Shown: one piece after another, positions 16,744-56,050 of the stretch
Layout of the letters: each line of letters opens with the position of its first letter
Numbering within the stretch: the stretch's first letter is position 1
Origin: Alphaproteobacteria bacterium
Lineage (GTDB): Bacteria > Pseudomonadota > Alphaproteobacteria > VGDZ01
Reading direction: 5' to 3'
NCBI GenBank assembly: GCA_016869515.1
Contig: VGDZ01000003.1
Location: forward strand, 18,804-82,803
DNA: 64,000 bases
Program-made: the position numbers and the translations under genes
Notes under the pieces: generated by a model
Databases searched by the model: none
Told to the model about the DNA's origin: nothing
The model's input: only the letters and a program-made list of their open reading frames with translations

Positions 16744-17631
16744 ATGGGTCAGAGCAAAGCGGCGCGGTTGCGGGCGGCGCTCGGCGGCGGGGACATCGTC
16801 GTCGCCGCCGGGGTCTACGACATGATCTCGGCGCGCATCGCCGACGGCATGGGCTTCAGCGCGCTCTACATGACCGGCTACGGCACGGTCGCCTCGGCGC
16901 TGGGCATCGCCGATGCCGGTCTGGCCAGTTATACCGAAATGGTCGAGCGCGTCGCGGTGCTGGCTGGCGGCACGGCGACGCCGATGATCTGCGACGCCGA
17001 CACCGGCTATGGCGGGCTGCTGAACGTGCGGCGCACGGTGCAGGGCTACGAGGCGGCGGGCGCCGCCGGCATCCAGATCGAGGACCAGGAGATGCCGAAG
17101 AAATGCGGTCATACGCTGGGCCGCCGCGTCGTGCCGCTGGAGGACATGGTGCTCAAGATCCGAGTCGCGGTCGAGGCGCGGCGCGATCCGGCAACGCTGA
17201 TCGTGGCGCGCACCGACTGCCGCACCACGCTCGGCATCGACGAGGCGCTGCGGCGCGGCGAGGCCTTCGCCAAGGCCGGCGCCGACGTGGTGTTCATCGA
17301 GAGTCCAGAAAGCCGCGCCGAACTCGAACGCATCGGCAAGGCGCTTTCGGGTTCGGCCTGGCTGCTGTGCAACATGGTCTATGACGGCCGCACGCCCGAG
17401 ACTCCGGCCGACGACCTCAAGCGCATGGGCTTCAGCATCGCCATCTATGCCGGCATGGCGCACAAGGCCGCGGCCGGCGCGCTGGAAGCGGCCTATCGCC
17501 ATCTCAAGGTCAAGCGCACCCAGATGGACATGCCGGGGCCGATGTATTCCAGCGCCAAGATGCACGAACTGATGGGTTTCCCCGAGGTCTGGGCGTTCGA
17601 GAAGCGCTGGGACCAGGGCCAGGCCGGCTGA
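16744..17631 (+). CDS. PEP mutase / isocitrate lyase superfamily enzyme (2-methylisocitrate lyase / dimethylmalate lyase / carboxyPEP mutase-like), paralog 1
   Basis: ATG 16744 (Met 19 of the track ORF); hallmark motifs DADTGYGG, IQIEDQ, KKCGH, VVFIE. Confidence 0.8.
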   Translation: MGQSKAARLRAALGGGDIVVAAGVYDMISARIADGMGFSALYMTGYGTVASALGIADAGLASYTEMVERVAVLAGGTATPMICDADTGYGGLLNVRRTVQGYEAAGAAGIQIEDQEMPKKCGHTLGRRVVPLEDMVLKIRVAVEARRDPATLIVARTDCRTTLGIDEALRRGEAFAKAGADVVFIESPESRAELERIGKALSGSAWLLCNMVYDGRTPETPADDLKRMGFSIAIYAGMAHKAAAGALEAAYRHLKVKRTQMDMPGPMYSSAKMHELMGFPEVWAFEKRWDQGQAG

Positions 17632-32622: not shown

Positions 32623-33852
32623 ATGACCGACGCGCAACGTCTTGCCGCGGGAGTCGATCCGCGCCGCGCGCTCGACTTTCTTGCCGCGATGGTTCGCCAC
32701 AAGAGCTACAGCAATACGCCGGGTGAGACCGAGCTTGCGCGCTTCATGGTGGCGGAAATGCAGAAACTCGGCATGGATGCGCGCCTGCAGCCGGTCGAGG
32801 GCGAGCGCTGCAACGCCATCGGCGTGTGGAAGGGCACGGGCGGCGGCAAGAGCCTGCTGTTCAACGGCCATCTCGATACCAATCCCGTCACCGGCGGCTG
32901 GACGGTCGATCCCTGGGGCGGGTTGGTAGACGACAAATTCATTTACGGCATCGGCGTCTCCAACATGAAGGCGGGCGACGCCGCTTATTTCTGCGCCGTG
33001 CGCAGCTTGATCGAGAACGGCGTTCGGCTGCGCGGCGACGTCGTCCTGACTTATGTTGTCGGCGAGTTGCAGGGCGGGGTTGGCACCATCAAGGCGATCG
33101 AAGCGGGCATTCGTGCCGATTATTTCATCAATGCCGAGCCGACCGACATCGCTGCCCTGACCTTGCACGCCGGCGCGTTCAACTGGACGGTCGAGCTCGA
33201 AGGCGTCACCCGCCACGTCTCCAAACGCGAGCAGGCCTGCGATGCGCTGCAGGCCGCGTCGGTGCTGGTGCCGCGACTGAACGCGCTTGAATTCAGCGGC
33301 GCCGCCAGCGAGGAGCACCGAGCCGTCAACCGCTGCCATGTCGGCGTGATGCGTTCGGCGCTGACGCCGGAATTCCACGATTGGCGCCCGCCGCAGGTAG
33401 CCGATTTCGCGCGACTGATCGGTACCGGTCGCTACGCCCCCAGCCAATCCGAGGACAGCGTCCTGGCCGACATTCGCCGCGAACTTGATTGGTTGCAACG
33501 CGAGTTTCCCGGCCTCAAGGCCAAGGTCGAACGCCAGCGCACCGGCCAGGTACAGCGGGCCTCGATGCTGCCCTTCGAGGTCGACCGATCCAGCCCGATC
33601 GTGCAGGCGATCAACGCCGCCCATCGGGCCGTCCGCCGAACGCCGCAGCCGACCGGTGCGATCGCGCCGCAATGCTATTACGGCACCGATGCCGCGCACC
33701 TGCAGCATCGCGCCGGAATGCAAGGCATCGTCTGCGGCCCGGGCGGCCGTTACAACACCATGCCCGACGAACGTGTGGACATTGTCGACTATCTCGACGC
33801 CGCCAAGATCTATCTCTTGACCGTGCTCGACATCTGCGGCCGGTCCGCCTAG
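32623..33852 (+). CDS. M20-family metallopeptidase / deacylase (ArgE/DapE/ACY1-like)
   Basis: 409 aa; metal-binding motifs NGHLDT, GVSNMKAG, and C-terminal YGTDAAHL. Confidence 0.8.
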   Translation: MTDAQRLAAGVDPRRALDFLAAMVRHKSYSNTPGETELARFMVAEMQKLGMDARLQPVEGERCNAIGVWKGTGGGKSLLFNGHLDTNPVTGGWTVDPWGGLVDDKFIYGIGVSNMKAGDAAYFCAVRSLIENGVRLRGDVVLTYVVGELQGGVGTIKAIEAGIRADYFINAEPTDIAALTLHAGAFNWTVELEGVTRHVSKREQACDALQAASVLVPRLNALEFSGAASEEHRAVNRCHVGVMRSALTPEFHDWRPPQVADFARLIGTGRYAPSQSEDSVLADIRRELDWLQREFPGLKAKVERQRTGQVQRASMLPFEVDRSSPIVQAINAAHRAVRRTPQPTGAIAPQCYYGTDAAHLQHRAGMQGIVCGPGGRYNTMPDERVDIVDYLDAAKIYLLTVLDICGRSA

Positions 33853-33915
33853 ACCGCGATTCACGGTTTGCATGGAATCGCCGACGCTGTTCCATGCAAA
33901 CCGTGAATCGCGGTC
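33852..33915. terminator. Perfect 26-bp-stem / 12-nt-loop hairpin immediately after the M20 peptidase stop codon (terminator or protein-binding palindrome)
   Basis: gaccgcgattcacggtttgcatggaa-tcgccgacgctg-ttccatgcaaaccgtgaatcgcggtc read directly; no U-tract follows. Confidence 0.55.
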
Positions 33916-33942
33916 CAGGGCGGGATCCGAGGGCATGAGTCA

Positions 33943-33978
33943 CGCTCGGTCTCGAACCATGGGGTTCTAGACCGAGCG
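33943..33978. promoter_or_regulatory. 16-bp near-perfect inverted repeat containing GAACC-N4-GGTTC, 22 bp upstream of the GntR start: candidate autoregulatory operator
   Basis: cgctcggtctcgaacc-atgg-ggttctagaccgagcg with one mismatch. Confidence 0.45.
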
Positions 33979-33999
33979 ATCTTGCCCTAGACTGACGTC

Positions 34000-50537: not shown

Positions 50538-51449
50538 TCACGGGGCTAGGGCATGATCGCTCGACGCGATGCGGGCTAGACGGACGACGTCGTCGATCGA
50601 ATCCGCCACGCGCGCGCCGGCCGCGCGCAGCATGGCGCGCTTTTCAGTGGCCGAATCGCCCGAGCCGGCGATCATCGCCGCGACGTGGCCGAAACTGACG
50701 CCGGCGGGATAGCGTTCCTGGAAGCGCCCGGCAATCAGGGCGATTATCGGCTTGGTCAGTTCGCCGGCGCGCATGGCCTGCGCGACGCCGGCCTCGTTGT
50801 CGGTCCCGGGTTCGCCGAAGATCACCATGGCGCGGGTTTCCGGGTCGGCCTGAAACAGGCGCAGATACTCGACCATCTTGCGGCCGGTCAGCGGATCTCC
50901 GCCCATCGAGATGCAGGTCGAGACGCCGAGACCGACTTGCTTGAGCGCGACCGCAAGCTCCGCCGACATCCCGCCCGAGCGCGACACGATTCCGACCGCA
51001 CCGGGGACATAGAGATCGGCGGTGCGATCGCCGCCGATCCCGCCGAGCCGGCATTTCCCCGGAGAAATCGCGCCGTTGGTGTTGAAGCCGATCAAAGTGG
51101 TGCCGGCTGTCCGCGCCAGCGCGATCGCCGCGGCGGCATCGTGCCGCGGCACGTTCTCGGCGGTCGCCAAGATGACCTTGACGCCGGCCTCGACCGCCTC
51201 GGTCACCGCATCCTTGACGCCGCGCGCCGGCACATAGAGCACGCTGGCATCCGCCCCCGTCGCGGCGACGGCGGCAGCCACCGTATCGAACACCGGCACG
51301 CCCTCGACCACCTCGCCGCCGCGACCCGGGGTCACCCCGGCGACGATGCGCGTGCCGTAGGCCAGGCAATAGCGGGTATCGAACCGGCCCTGATTGCCGG
51401 TGATGCCCTGCACGACGACGCGCGTGTCGCGATCGATCAGGATGCTCAC
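50538..51449 (-). CDS. Succinyl-CoA synthetase alpha subunit-like (SucD-like CoA ligase alpha)
   Basis: GTG 51449 overlapping the upstream stop (GTGA); motifs VVVQGITGNQG, GIVSRSGG, catalytic-His context GHVAAMIAGSG. Confidence 0.8.
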   Translation of the reverse strand: MSILIDRDTRVVVQGITGNQGRFDTRYCLAYGTRIVAGVTPGRGGEVVEGVPVFDTVAAAVAATGADASVLYVPARGVKDAVTEAVEAGVKVILATAENVPRHDAAAAIALARTAGTTLIGFNTNGAISPGKCRLGGIGGDRTADLYVPGAVGIVSRSGGMSAELAVALKQVGLGVSTCISMGGDPLTGRKMVEYLRLFQADPETRAMVIFGEPGTDNEAGVAQAMRAGELTKPIIALIAGRFQERYPAGVSFGHVAAMIAGSGDSATEKRAMLRAAGARVADSIDDVVRLARIASSDHALAP

Positions 51450-52642
51450 GATCCCGGCCCCCGCTGGGCCATGGCCGCCAACGCGGCGCGAACCGCGTCG
51501 CTCAGGCTGGCCTCCCGCGGCAGGTATTGGATCCCCGGCAGCGTCGCCGCGATGGCGCGCGCTTCCGCCTCCTTCGGTCCGAACAACCGCACCACGATCG
51601 GAAAACGCCGTGGATCGATGGCCTTTTCGCGCAGCACCGACACCAAAGCCTCGATCACCAAGTCGCACGGCGCCATTTGCAGGAAGTTGTACCCGATCAG
51701 CAGCCCGCGGACCCTGGGGTTGGACAGCATGGCATCGATCAGGGCACGCGGCTTGTCGACCGTCGGTGCCGGCGACAGGTCGGTATGGCAAGCCGGGCGC
51801 CCGCCAAGATCGACCACGAGGTCGTGCTGCACCAGTCCGGCCCCGCCTCCGGCGACCATCAACGCAAGATCGCCGTCCAACTCGGTGTATCGGATGGCGC
51901 CGCCGGAGAATTTCCGATCGGCCGCGATCACGGCGCGCTCGCGCGCGTTCCGTGCCTGAAGCAGGTCGGCGGCTTCCAGCGACTGCCATTCGGGATGCCG
52001 GAACAAGGCCGCATCGTCGATCTCGACCATGGCTCCGACCAGGGTCAATGTCTCAGCCGCGTCGAGCGCGATCGGGTTGAGCTCGAGCATAAGGGCGTCG
52101 CCGGCACGGAAAGCCTCGCCTAGGGAGGCCGTCAATCGCGCCAACTTGGGCAACAAGGGGCCCGAGATCCCTGCCTCGGTCCAAAGCGCCGTCGCCTCCC
52201 ACGGCCGCAAGCCGCGCGCCGGATCGATATCGCGGGTGGCGATCGCGGCAGGACTGTCGCGATGCACCTGTTCGATCTCGACTCCGCCTTCGCGGCAGGC
52301 CATGACCCGCGGTAGGATCGAGCCGAAAGCGAAGCCGAGATAGAATTCGCGGACGATGGCGACGGCGCGCTCGACATAGACCCGCTCGACCGCATGCCCG
52401 GCGATGCTCCGCCCCAGCAGGGCAGCGGCGGCGGCCTCGGCTTCCGACGGGGTGGTCGCCAGCGCCACCCCGCCCGCCTTGCCGCGACGGCCGGCGGGTA
52501 TCAGCGCCTTGACCGCAACCCGGCCGCCGAATCGCGCCGCGGCCTCCGCGACCGCCGCAGGCGAGGATGCCGCCATGCCTTCGGGAACCGGAAGGCCCTG
52601 GCCGCGCAGCCACGCCTTGGCATGGTCCTCGGTCAAGCGCAT
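51446..52642 (-). CDS. Succinyl-CoA synthetase beta subunit-like (SucC-like ATP-grasp CoA ligase beta)
   Basis: 398 aa; ATP-grasp N-terminus (VAVKALIPAGRRGKAGGV) and ligase C-terminal domain. Confidence 0.8.
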   Translation of the reverse strand: MRLTEDHAKAWLRGQGLPVPEGMAASSPAAVAEAAARFGGRVAVKALIPAGRRGKAGGVALATTPSEAEAAAAALLGRSIAGHAVERVYVERAVAIVREFYLGFAFGSILPRVMACREGGVEIEQVHRDSPAAIATRDIDPARGLRPWEATALWTEAGISGPLLPKLARLTASLGEAFRAGDALMLELNPIALDAAETLTLVGAMVEIDDAALFRHPEWQSLEAADLLQARNARERAVIAADRKFSGGAIRYTELDGDLALMVAGGGAGLVQHDLVVDLGGRPACHTDLSPAPTVDKPRALIDAMLSNPRVRGLLIGYNFLQMAPCDLVIEALVSVLREKAIDPRRFPIVVRLFGPKEAEARAIAATLPGIQYLPREASLSDAVRAALAAMAQRGPGS

Positions 52643-52845: not shown

Positions 52846-53865
52846 ATGACCAATCGTTCGTTCCGAGGGGCAATCGTCCATGCCGTCGTGGCGGCATTCT
52901 CCTTGTGCTGCGTCGCCGCAAGCGCGCAAGAGCGTTTGGCCCGCATCTCCTATCATTGGGCGCCCGACCACGAAAGCGCGCAGCACTCGAAAAAGTTCAC
53001 CGACCTGGCGAATGCCGCCCTGGGCGGCAAGCTCAAGATCGATACGTTTCACTCCGGCCAGCTCTACACCATCCGCCAGATCGTCGGCGCGCTGTCGGCC
53101 GGATCGGTCGAGATGGGCGGGGTGGTGACCTTCAACCAATTCACCGCCATCGACAAGGACTGGAACATCACCGTCTTTCCGGGCTACTTCAAATCGATCG
53201 AGCACCAGCGCAAGTTCTTCGACGAAGTGCCGGAGGGCATCGCGCTGCGCAAGCGGGTGCTGGAGAAGACCGGGCTGGTGCACATCGCCTACGTTCCCGT
53301 CGGCCCCTACGTCACCTTCTCGACCAAGAGCGAGATGAAGACCGTGGCCAGCATGGCCGGGCTCAAGGCCCGCGCCTTGGCGCCCAACGAACGGCCCGGC
53401 TATGTCGCCCGCAAGATGGACGTGGTGTCGCTGTCGACCGAGGAGATCTTCACGGCGCTGCAAAGCGGCATGGTCGACACGCTTTCGACCGTGCCGACGG
53501 CGGTCAAGGCATACAACTGGTGGCAGTATCTGAAATACGTCCAACTGCCCTATTCGGTCTATGCCGATTCCGAGATCATGGCCAACGGCAAGTGGTTCGC
53601 CGGGCTGCCGGCCGACATGCAGAAATCCCTGCTTGAAATCGGTGCCAGGATTTCCGAGGAAGCCACTCGCAACACCATGGCCGGCAACGACGCGGCGCTG
53701 AAGGAGATGGTCGAGAAGCACGGCGGCAAGATCACGCATCTCGAGGGCGCGGCCCTGGCCGAGTTCCAGAAGCTGGATCGCGAGCGTACCGAGGTCGAAT
53801 TGGCCAAGATGGTGTCGCCCGAGATTTTGGCCGCGGCGCGGCGCTATATCGGCCGAACCAACTGA
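52846..53865 (+). CDS. dctP: TRAP transporter substrate-binding protein (DctP family)
   Basis: ATG 52846 preceded by a GAAGGGGGAAAGG ribosome-binding site; signal peptide; DctP-like fold. Confidence 0.85.
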   Translation: MTNRSFRGAIVHAVVAAFSLCCVAASAQERLARISYHWAPDHESAQHSKKFTDLANAALGGKLKIDTFHSGQLYTIRQIVGALSAGSVEMGGVVTFNQFTAIDKDWNITVFPGYFKSIEHQRKFFDEVPEGIALRKRVLEKTGLVHIAYVPVGPYVTFSTKSEMKTVASMAGLKARALAPNERPGYVARKMDVVSLSTEEIFTALQSGMVDTLSTVPTAVKAYNWWQYLKYVQLPYSVYADSEIMANGKWFAGLPADMQKSLLEIGARISEEATRNTMAGNDAALKEMVEKHGGKITHLEGAALAEFQKLDRERTEVELAKMVSPEILAAARRYIGRTN

Positions 53866-53889: not shown

Positions 53890-54420
53890 ATGCGGTTTCT
53901 GGGTCGGCTCAAGGGCATCAACGATGTCCTTGAGCGGGTGGTGCGAGGGCTCGGGGGTGCGCTGATCGCGGTCATCCTGTTTGCCTTGTTCGCCAGCGCC
54001 GCGACCCGCTATGTCACCGGCATCGGCTACGACTGGCTGACCGAATTGCCGCCGCAATTGCTGCCGTGGATCGTGTTTCCGATGATCGGCGTGCTGCTGC
54101 GCCATGACGGCCATGTCACGGTCGATGTGCTGCCGCATTTCCTGCACGGCCGCAACCTGACCCGGCTTCGCGCCGTGGTATTCGCGTTCTCGACCCTGGC
54201 GTGCCTCGCCTTCGCGATCTTCGGCGTCGACGCCGTCGGGTTCTATCAGCGCCTTGGCCAGCGGACCGCGACCGAAGTCGAGATTCCGCTGTGGCTGCTG
54301 TACCTGTCCTTTCCCATCGGCTTCTTCATGGCGGCGAGCTTTACCGGCGAAGCTCTGCTGCGGCTGTTGGTCAGGCGCGAGGGCGATGCGCCCGTGGCCG
54401 CGCCCGGCGGGCGGGCATGA
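53890..54420 (+). CDS. dctQ: TRAP transporter small permease (DctQ family)
   Basis: 176 aa with 4 TM segments between dctP and dctM. Confidence 0.8.
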   Translation: MRFLGRLKGINDVLERVVRGLGGALIAVILFALFASAATRYVTGIGYDWLTELPPQLLPWIVFPMIGVLLRHDGHVTVDVLPHFLHGRNLTRLRAVVFAFSTLACLAFAIFGVDAVGFYQRLGQRTATEVEIPLWLLYLSFPIGFFMAASFTGEALLRLLVRREGDAPVAAPGGRA

Positions 54421-55682
54421 TCGCGCTGTTTGGCCTGTCGGCCTTGGCGCTGGCGATCCTGTCGGTGCCGATCTTCCTGGTCTTCGGCGTGTCCTCCACC
54501 GCGGTGGCATTGTGGGGCCTCAAGCTGCCCTCGGCCATGCTGATGCAGATCAGCTTTGACGCCATGACCAAGCAGGTGCTGGTGGCGATCCCGTTGTTTC
54601 TGTTTGCCGGCAACGTCATGCTCAAGGGCGGCACCGCCAGGCGCTTGGTCGATCTCAGCTTGGCGGCCGTCGGCCACCTGCCCGGCGGGTTGGCGCTGGC
54701 GATGATCCTGGCGATGGCGTTTTTCGCGGCATTCTGCGGCTCGATCCTGGCCGCGATCGGGGCGATCGGCACGGTGCTGCTGCCGACCATGATCGAGCGC
54801 GGCTATCCCAAGGCCTTCGTCATCGTGCTGGCGGCCTGCGCCGCCATCATCGAGGCTCTGATCCCGCCTTCCAATACCGCCATCCTCTATTCGGCCATCA
54901 CCCATGTCCCGGTAACCAAGACTTTCGCCGCGGGAGTGCTTCCCGGGCTGGTGCTGATGACGTTGCTCATGCTGTACACGCTCTTGGTGTGCCGGAACAT
55001 GCCGCGCCCGCCGCGGGCGTCTTGGCCGGTCTTGCGCGACGCCGTGCTCGGTGCCCTGCCGGCGCTGTTGACGCCGGTGATCATCATCGGCGGCATCTAT
55101 GGCGGCTTGTTCACCGCCGCCGAATCCGCCGCCGTGGCCGGCGTCTGGGGCATTGTCCTCGGCCGTTACATCTACCGCGAGCTGACCCTGAAGGGCTTGT
55201 GGGAGGCGTTGAAGGCGACCGCCGAGTCGACCACGGTGATTTTCGCCATCATCGCCATGGCGATCTTCCTGTCGATCGTCCTGACCTACACCAAGACGCC
55301 CCAGGCGATCGTCGAATACATGGTCCAGCTGGGCATCACCCAGGTCACGTTCTTCCTCGCCGCCGGACTGACGCTGCTGTTTCTCGGCGCATTCATCGAA
55401 GTGGTGCCGGTTTTCTATTTGACCCTGCCGATTTTCATTCCGGTCATCCACTCCCTGAAGATCGACACGCTGCAGTTCTACGTCTTTTTCACCGGCTTGG
55501 TCGGGATCGGCCTGTTGACGCCGCCGGTCTGCGTCGGCGTCTACATGGCGGCGTCGGTGGTGCGCGAGCCGCCCGAGCGGGTCTTCAAGGCGGTGCCGGG
55601 CTTCATCGTCATCGGCATCATCTACGCCGCGATCATGGCCAGCTTCCCCTGGCTGGCGACGTGGCTTCCCTCGAAGCTCTAG
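54417..55682 (+). CDS. dctM: TRAP transporter large permease (DctM family)
   Basis: ATG overlapping the dctQ stop (ATGA); 421-aa polytopic membrane protein. Confidence 0.85.
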   Translation: MIALFGLSALALAILSVPIFLVFGVSSTAVALWGLKLPSAMLMQISFDAMTKQVLVAIPLFLFAGNVMLKGGTARRLVDLSLAAVGHLPGGLALAMILAMAFFAAFCGSILAAIGAIGTVLLPTMIERGYPKAFVIVLAACAAIIEALIPPSNTAILYSAITHVPVTKTFAAGVLPGLVLMTLLMLYTLLVCRNMPRPPRASWPVLRDAVLGALPALLTPVIIIGGIYGGLFTAAESAAVAGVWGIVLGRYIYRELTLKGLWEALKATAESTTVIFAIIAMAIFLSIVLTYTKTPQAIVEYMVQLGITQVTFFLAAGLTLLFLGAFIEVVPVFYLTLPIFIPVIHSLKIDTLQFYVFFTGLVGIGLLTPPVCVGVYMAASVVREPPERVFKAVPGFIVIGIIYAAIMASFPWLATWLPSKL

Positions 55683-55834
55683 CAGGCTGCTGAAAAACTT
55701 GGTGGGAATGGTGAAACACGAAACGAAAGAATCGTGGCGTGCGTAACGACGAAAGATCAGAATCGAAAGTCGATCCATTTTGATTCAATGTTGCTCGCTG
55801 ACACGCCTCGAAACCCTTATTCAGCAGCCTGCTA
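55678..55834. mobile_element. MITE-like element: 16-bp perfect terminal inverted repeats (ctagcaggctgctgaa / ttcagcagcctgctag) flanking ~125 bp of low-GC sequence with GAAAGAATC-like reiterations
   Basis: Read directly; the left inverted repeat overlaps the dctM stop codon; interior cgaaacgaaagaatcg...cgaaagatcagaatcgaaagtcgatcc. Confidence 0.4.
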
Positions 55835-56050
55835 GCGCCCATAACAGGGAAACTGTCCGAGCGAACACGGAATTCGCGCTATCGAGCAGGGATTCAAACT
55901 CCGACCAGGCACCGGGCAAATGCGTCGCCGAATTTTCTTTGCTTTGTCTGTCTTCTCTGCGGTCGAGTCCGTGAGGATAGAGTGGCCGCATGGCTGAATC
56001 CGCCCACTCCATCACCATTGCCGCAGCCCCATTTTGGACACTGGCCGGGA

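Follow-up and report, generated by a model that had tools for sequence, protein, structure and literature searches.

The sequence at the 3' end of dctM, in the genome of an uncultured alphaproteobacterium, is a candidate mobile element. We assign a probability of about 0.9 to the reading that it is a non-coding miniature transposon (MITE) with ends of the IS5/IS1182 type, inserted on the CTAG of the dctM stop codon. A preliminary description of the window (the whole 64-kb stretch of DNA that was analysed) had called it MITE-like, and that reading is supported by further copies at other loci, a target-site duplication (TSD), and ends common to autonomous insertion sequences.

The element and its probable insertion at dctM

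The element is marked by an exact inverted pair, CTAGCAGGCTGCTGAA at 55679-55694 on the + strand and its reverse complement at 55820-55835. Both 16-nt arms had been recognized earlier, with coordinates one base low, and the unit size of 157 bp given at that time is correct when both CTAGs are counted. When extended, the arms reach 22 nt with 91% complementarity according to a repeat finder. Thirty local shuffles of the window yielded no perfect inverted pair of 16 nt or longer within 200 nt, and the same ends are found in hundreds of elements. A coincidental intergenic palindrome, for which the single occurrence in the window would speak, can therefore be dismissed. The 16-mer inverted pair represents one element copy only within the 64-kb window. 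The sole other near match to the 16-mer, ATGGCGGGCTGCTGAA at 17009-17024, has three mismatches and no partner arm and is most likely a chance match; with up to three mismatches, 0.4 occurrences are expected by chance.

The 16-mer had been described as a 16-bp terminal inverted repeat (TIR). The inverted repeat stands, but to judge from sequence comparison its outer four bases are a CTAG TSD and the other 12 are the perfect part of a 15-nt TIR. We assign the outer CTAG to the TSD of a YTAR target rather than to the TIR because the flanking 4-mers of the wider family are direct duplications. The features so defined are collected in Table 1. The TIR arms pair perfectly at 12 of 12 positions, and at 14 of 15 over the consensus TIR. 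At the position of the right TIR, the copy designated L149 (described below) carries the consensus TTTTTCAG.

Table 1. Window coordinates of the element, its parts and the neighbouring genes.
Feature	Position	Strand	Basis and remarks
dctP	about 52846-53865		First gene of dctPQM
dctQ	53890-54420		Middle gene of dctPQM
dctM, TRAP transporter large permease, 421 aa	54417-55682	+	ORF; ATGA overlap with dctQ; last gene of dctPQM
Left TSD copy, CTAG	55679-55682	+	55680-55682 is the TAG stop of dctM; YTAR TSD of the family; DctM C-terminal position
Element proper, 149 bp	55683-55831		TIR to TIR
Left TIR, CAGGCTGCTGAAAAA	55683-55697	+	15/15 match to the family consensus; same termini on IS5/IS1182-type insertion sequences
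Non-coding interior, 119 bp, ~49% GC	55698-55816		Conserved only within its own subfamily (L148, L149: 89-97%)
Right TIR, TTATTCAGCAGCCTG	55817-55831	-	Reverse complement CAGGCTGCTGAATAA; one mismatch to left arm and consensus
Right TSD copy, CTAG	55832-55835	+	Sequence; family TSD
IclR-family regulator gene, convergent, 263 aa	56051-56842	-	Exact protein on record, HTH_IclR and IclR_C

The interior is GC-poor, as first remarked: the GC fraction is 0.49 in the element region and about 0.65 in the flanking DNA. What had been pointed out there as reiterated GAAAG(A)ATC units corresponds to one 17-nt pair, but at 76% identity the pair is too weak to be given significance. The ORFs that cross the element are spurious only.

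A protein identical to DctM is on record with the Pfam domain DctM, beside DctP and DctQ, and the IclR record is matched from the ATG start, the GTG-start version being without a record. The element sits in the 368-bp gap between the ends of dctM and the iclR gene. A succinyl-CoA-ligase-like pair (ATP-grasp_2/Ligase_CoA) and an alpha/beta hydrolase are encoded divergently from dctPQM (window 51446-52642 on the - strand and upstream; 98-3260 of contig L001). Together with dctPQM and the IclR gene they look like an organic-acid uptake and activation cluster, which has no connection with the MITE.

The TAG stop of dctM lies inside the left 16-mer, as the preliminary description observed. Its further suggestion that the insertion donated or re-created this stop is not borne out. 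The DctM homologues are 420-421 aa long with the same C-terminal register (39 of the 40 compared have this length), and the C-terminus ...ATWLPSKL* places the stop three residues past the conserved WLP, as in the 40 compared homologues. The stop is native, because DctM ends at this conserved family position. The nearest DctM homologue among 5.8 billion proteins is only 66% identical.

We propose that an IS5/IS1182-type DDE transposase supplied in trans bound both ends and excised or copied the element, which would then have entered a YTAR target through a staggered cut of 4 nt. This target would have been the CTAG made up of the terminal C of the last Leu codon (CTC) and the TAG stop of dctM, in a pre-insertion sequence ...GAAGCT-CTAG-CGCCCATAAC... 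with the empty junction ...GAAGCTCTAGCGCCCATAAC... Repair of the stagger would have duplicated the CTAG, leaving one copy on the left, where dctM still ends at its native position, and one on the right, ahead of the former 3' flank. Because the left copy still terminates dctM, the DctM protein is unchanged and the insertion tolerated; the duplication thus appears to have preserved the native stop, and the gene is intact. As a by-product, a dctPQM read-through transcript is predicted to gain a long, stable 3' hairpin, which might affect the stability of the mRNA 3' end or read-through towards iclR. That the element was mobile at the dctM locus we infer from these features.

Related copies and a shared terminal repeat

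We identified two further copies of the element's own subfamily in a metagenome search with a 22-mer from the interior, which matched two contigs of the JGI metagenome Ga0194120 (L148 and L149). This is a different metagenome, and the copies perhaps come from a different, related organism. The copy at 5582-5730 of L149 is 97.3% identical, 149 bp long and flanked by CTAG on both sides, as is the window element. The copy at 571-719 of L148 (- strand) is 89.3% identical, also 149 bp long, and flanked by ATAG and CTAA. The flanks of L148 and L149 are unrelated to each other's setting and to the dctM locus, so that the three copies lie in three contexts. Both of the checks that had been proposed for a MITE, multiple copies and a TSD, were thereby answered in its favour. 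Another metagenome search, with the left-end 22-mer CTGCTGAAAAACTTGGTGGGAA, gave no matches because L149 and L148 each have a substitution inside that 22-mer. No match to the element was found by blastn among 72,556 plasmids.

The sole other record of DctM from this locus is in the Logan assembly of the source sample, SRR7985589. One Logan contig ends at window position 55708 (L001) and another starts at 55771 (L144). In Logan contigs every 31-mer is unique per accession (PMC12424806). Position 55801 is A in the window copy and C in both L148 and L149, and the restart of the Logan assembly matches this divergence exactly. We infer that the breaks are the expected product of a repeat with slightly diverged copies, an explanation that is indirect but specific. 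The Logan assembly, with k=31, breaks on both sides within the element and the MAG contig spans it; contigs of this sample can be expected to end at copies of the MITE.

A second repeat was observed at window 33849-33989. It consists of a 26-nt perfect inverted repeat (arms 33852-33877 and 33890-33915) with a 12-nt loop, directly after a CTAG. A copy of about 140 bp with 75% identity lies at 5444-5581 of L149, adjoining the MITE, and there the left CTAG duplication of the MITE doubles as the terminal CTAG of the neighbouring repeat. This repeat may be another small CTAG-targeting element, in an adjacent or nested insertion.

The TIR itself is far more widespread than the subfamily. Searching one genome per species for CAGGCTGCTGAA, followed by 105-135 nt and then TTCAGCAGCCTG, we identified at least 120 loci with elements of 129-159 bp that have this TIR. 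The hosts among the matches listed include Acidobacteriota, Alpha- and Gammaproteobacteria, Nitrospirota, NC10, Chloroflexi (Dehalococcoidia), Planctomycetes and Myxococcota. Positions 13-15 of the ends, which were free in the search, are at least 92% A among the matches listed; since these unrequired positions are also conserved, the TIR consensus is the 15-nt CAGGCTGCTGAAAAA.

Among the matches listed, 119 elements have enough flank for comparison, and 77 of them have the same 4-mer on both sides. These 77 pairs comprise 52 that are palindromic (51 of them CTAG) and 25 that are non-palindromic direct repeats, whereas only one pair in the 119 elements is inverted but not direct. The commonest flanking 4-mers in the same set are CTAG, TTAG and CTAA, and the direct repeats include TTAG/TTAG, CTAA/CTAA and CCAG/CCAG. 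The target of the family is YTAR, with a 4-bp direct duplication. Classical IS5 elements duplicate 4 bp of a YTAR/CTAG target, and the family of the window element shares with them both the target and the 4-bp TSD.

The interiors are extremely diverse. Together with that of the window element, the 121 interiors among the matches listed form 69 clusters, and none of the 121 is matched by the window's interior. Individual subfamilies can nevertheless be abundant within a host: nine copies of 130-132 bp belong to one family, seven of which (those with titles listed) are on contigs of a single Terriglobia MAG, and a 159-bp member occurs at 43 places in 7 replicons of Paracoccus versutus. A Lysobacter MAG contig (L073) has a pair of MITEs of the same subfamily at 264-413 and 640-790, in opposite orientation about 230 bp apart, a composite-like arrangement. 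At four further loci (L038 1032-1168, L113 3148-3286, L052 4016-4165 and L137 5785-5934) the outer 12 nt are mutually inverted (for example ggcacggcttta...tgaagccgtgcc) and there is no YTAR direct repeat; these elements may lie in the middle of a different palindromic repeat or represent a variant whose TIRs are longer. In the literature searched for the TIR string, only unrelated primers and no account of a cross-phylum family came up, which argues only weakly that none has been published.

Insertion sequences with the same ends

The 16-mer was also found at 22 loci in viral contigs, and at many of them it lies no more than about 100-200 nt from one end or the other of the contig stretch examined. 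At several of the loci it is followed, after about 90 nt, by the start of a transposase (MRG.DE...LFSYVDLE.RIPA.HPLR). A complete example is the 1364-bp insertion sequence at 2868-4231 of L011, which has two inverted copies of the end and one ORF for a 389-aa transposase with the Pfam domains DUF772 and DDE_Tnp_1. This protein scores 253.8 bits against the NCBIfam model transpos_IS5_4 (cut-off 140) and 186.8 against the IS1182 model, below the cut-off of 270. The same ends are carried by L145, L146 and L147 in addition to L011, and by several viral-contig insertion sequences; the full-length insertion sequences with this TIR are about 1.36 kb long.

A tblastn search of plasmids with this partner transposase matched 299 records, including the annotated ISRssp10 and ISRsp13 and a single copy on plasmid pYEE3 of Paracoccus yeei CCUG 32053. 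All three have CAGGC(T/C)GCTGAA termini. TTAA borders both ends of ISRsp13 and of the pYEE3 copy, and the ISRssp10 copy has CTAA at one end and TTAA at the other. ISRssp10 and ISRsp13 resemble the window element in these ends and in the TTAA or CTAA flanks. However, they are autonomous, at 1.36 kb with a 389-aa transposase, whereas the window element has the ends only. The TIR is thus predicted to be the recognition end of a widespread IS5/IS1182-type clade with a DDE transposase that has DUF772 at its N-terminus. A homologue of the partner transposase was not found in the 64-kb window by tblastn, nor in L148 or L149.

The ISRssp10 copy in L145 (Roseovarius sp. AK1035 plasmid NZ_CP030100.1) occupies positions 318-1681, at the 3' end of a TRAP large-permease gene (1-363). 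The annotated coding sequence reaches 46 nt into the insertion sequence, and the insertion therefore altered the C-terminus of that permease.

Because full-length insertion sequences have these ends and the window holds a single copy, the element could be an in-situ remnant, that is, an IS5/IS1182-type insertion sequence that inserted at dctM and lost its interior, the short form never having moved. Against this, there are three 149-bp copies of 89-97% identity in three flanking contexts. Copies of equal length at different loci imply that the short form itself transposed, and the L148 and L149 flanks are unlike those in the window and so give no sign of a segmental duplication. The interior also lacks any trace of subterminal sequence from the insertion sequences sampled: compared with the subterminal parts of 13 sampled ends, it gave no score above shuffles (highest z 2.6). 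We consider an in-situ remnant highly improbable. For the mobile MITE that we favour, descent from a particular insertion sequence by internal deletion likewise finds no support in the subterminal regions sampled.

The closest named elements are MITEPye1 and ISPye18 of Paracoccus yeei. MITEPye1 is 159 bp long, with 4-bp direct repeats and 18-bp TIRs that resemble those of ISPye18; it is present in 1-3 intergenic copies per chromosome that are 96-100% identical, and is predicted to form a long RNA hairpin (PMC11578231). ISPye18 is said to be on pYEE3 and was placed in the IS1182 family by the same authors (PMC11578231). The family of the partner is therefore ambiguous, since NCBIfam points to IS5. 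The sole insertion sequence of this clade on pYEE3, probably ISPye18, has the ends CAGGCCGCTGAAATA and a TTAA duplication, and its TIR is of the same type as that of the window element. The 159-bp Paracoccus versutus member (L068) has exactly the window's TIR.

MITEPye1 and the window element are alike in being small, without an ORF, located between genes and bounded by 4-bp direct repeats. However, the window element is 149 bp long rather than 159, its host is an uncultured alphaproteobacterial MAG, and its interior is unlike that of the 159-bp Paracoccus member L068; MITEPye1 itself was compared by its description. The window element is most likely not MITEPye1 but a new subfamily within its TIR superfamily. 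By analogy only, it also resembles Chunjie, a MITE found in Geobacter uraniireducens (Chen et al. 2008), which a review describes as 178-235 bp long, with conserved TIRs, direct repeats and many intergenic copies, one of them inside an operon that it did not destroy (PMC10969869). In that description Chunjie is longer and has another host.

RNA structure and stop codons

Short palindromic intergenic repeats of the REP/BIME type are, like the window element, often found at the 3' ends of genes, where they form RNA hairpins. However, REP/BIME units are 20-40 nt long, lack the architecture of TIR plus TSD, and depend on a Y1 (RAYT) transposase. The 149-bp unit, the DDE-type insertion sequence ends and the 4-bp TSD rule out this identity.

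A structured small RNA or an attenuator had been proposed as an alternative to a MITE. The element would then be a small RNA or a 3'-UTR regulatory element (attenuator, terminator or stabiliser) that was selected for its closing stem and is not mobile. It does lie directly 3' of an operon, between convergent genes, and the RNA of the + strand has a predicted fold of -61.4 kcal/mol (z = -4.5 compared with shuffles), closed by a stem of about 17 bp. However, this stem is accounted for by the TIRs themselves. An Rfam search up to an E-value of 10 gave nothing near a gathering score, the best overlap being CRISPR-DR27 with 21 bits against 35 (E = 2.3), and no sigma-70-like promoter and no + strand terminator of hairpin and U-run were found in the element. 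The closing stem is followed by GCGCCCATAAC, and the dctM strand lacks the U-run of an intrinsic terminator. One weak terminator-like site is present on the - strand within the element, at chance level.

Comparison of the copies also argues against selection for RNA structure. The same 149 bp occur in unrelated contexts in L148 and L149, and the arm substitutions in these copies are uncompensated; in L148, CAGGGTG against CAGGTCG leaves one broken pair and one wobble. Across the family, conservation is confined to the 15-nt ends, and the interiors among the matches listed are unrelated from one of the 69 clusters to the next. A non-mobile RNA element is thus very unlikely.

The family shows a marked association with stop codons. 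Among the matches listed, 31 of 105 elements (about 30%) have one TSD copy that serves as the stop codon of an ORF of 200 codons or more. At the same loci, 33 of 168 MITE sides (19.6%) are on stops, compared with 177 of 4406 background YTAR sides (4.0%), an odds ratio of 5.8 (p = 3e-13). The simplest reading of this excess is that YTAR contains TAG or TAA and that insertions within genes are purged.

This association bears on whether the window element, a MITE by origin, has since been exapted as a stabiliser of the RNA 3' end or as an insulator between dctPQM and iclR, which would be compatible with the MITE reading. The hairpin is predicted to be stable and lies exactly at the end of the operon, as about 30% of the family among the matches listed lie exactly at stop codons, and effects of this kind have been proposed for MITEPye1 (PMC11578231) and in a review (PMC10969869). 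However, target choice and purging explain the stop-codon excess more simply, and no stop codon adjoins the L149 copy. Exaptation at this locus seems to us unlikely.

More broadly, and tentatively, the elements might constitute one MITE superfamily, perhaps undescribed as a whole, in which near-invariant CAGGCTGCTGAAAAA ends enclose dozens of unrelated interiors. Such a superfamily could systematically supply 3'-UTR hairpins across phyla, which were possibly exapted to protect mRNA 3' ends or to insulate.

For annotation, we advise that the 15-nt CAGGCTGCTGAAAAA be masked as a MITE or insertion sequence signature and not be called a small RNA or terminator. At the dctM locus the element appears to be of little consequence, a tolerated passenger that explains both the GC-poor palindrome and the breaks in short-k assembly. 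With the YTAR target of the IS5 type, a transposon can settle on a stop codon and leave the gene unharmed, of which dctM is a clean case, and the family data suggest that stop codons serve this superfamily as a major safe harbour in many phyla.
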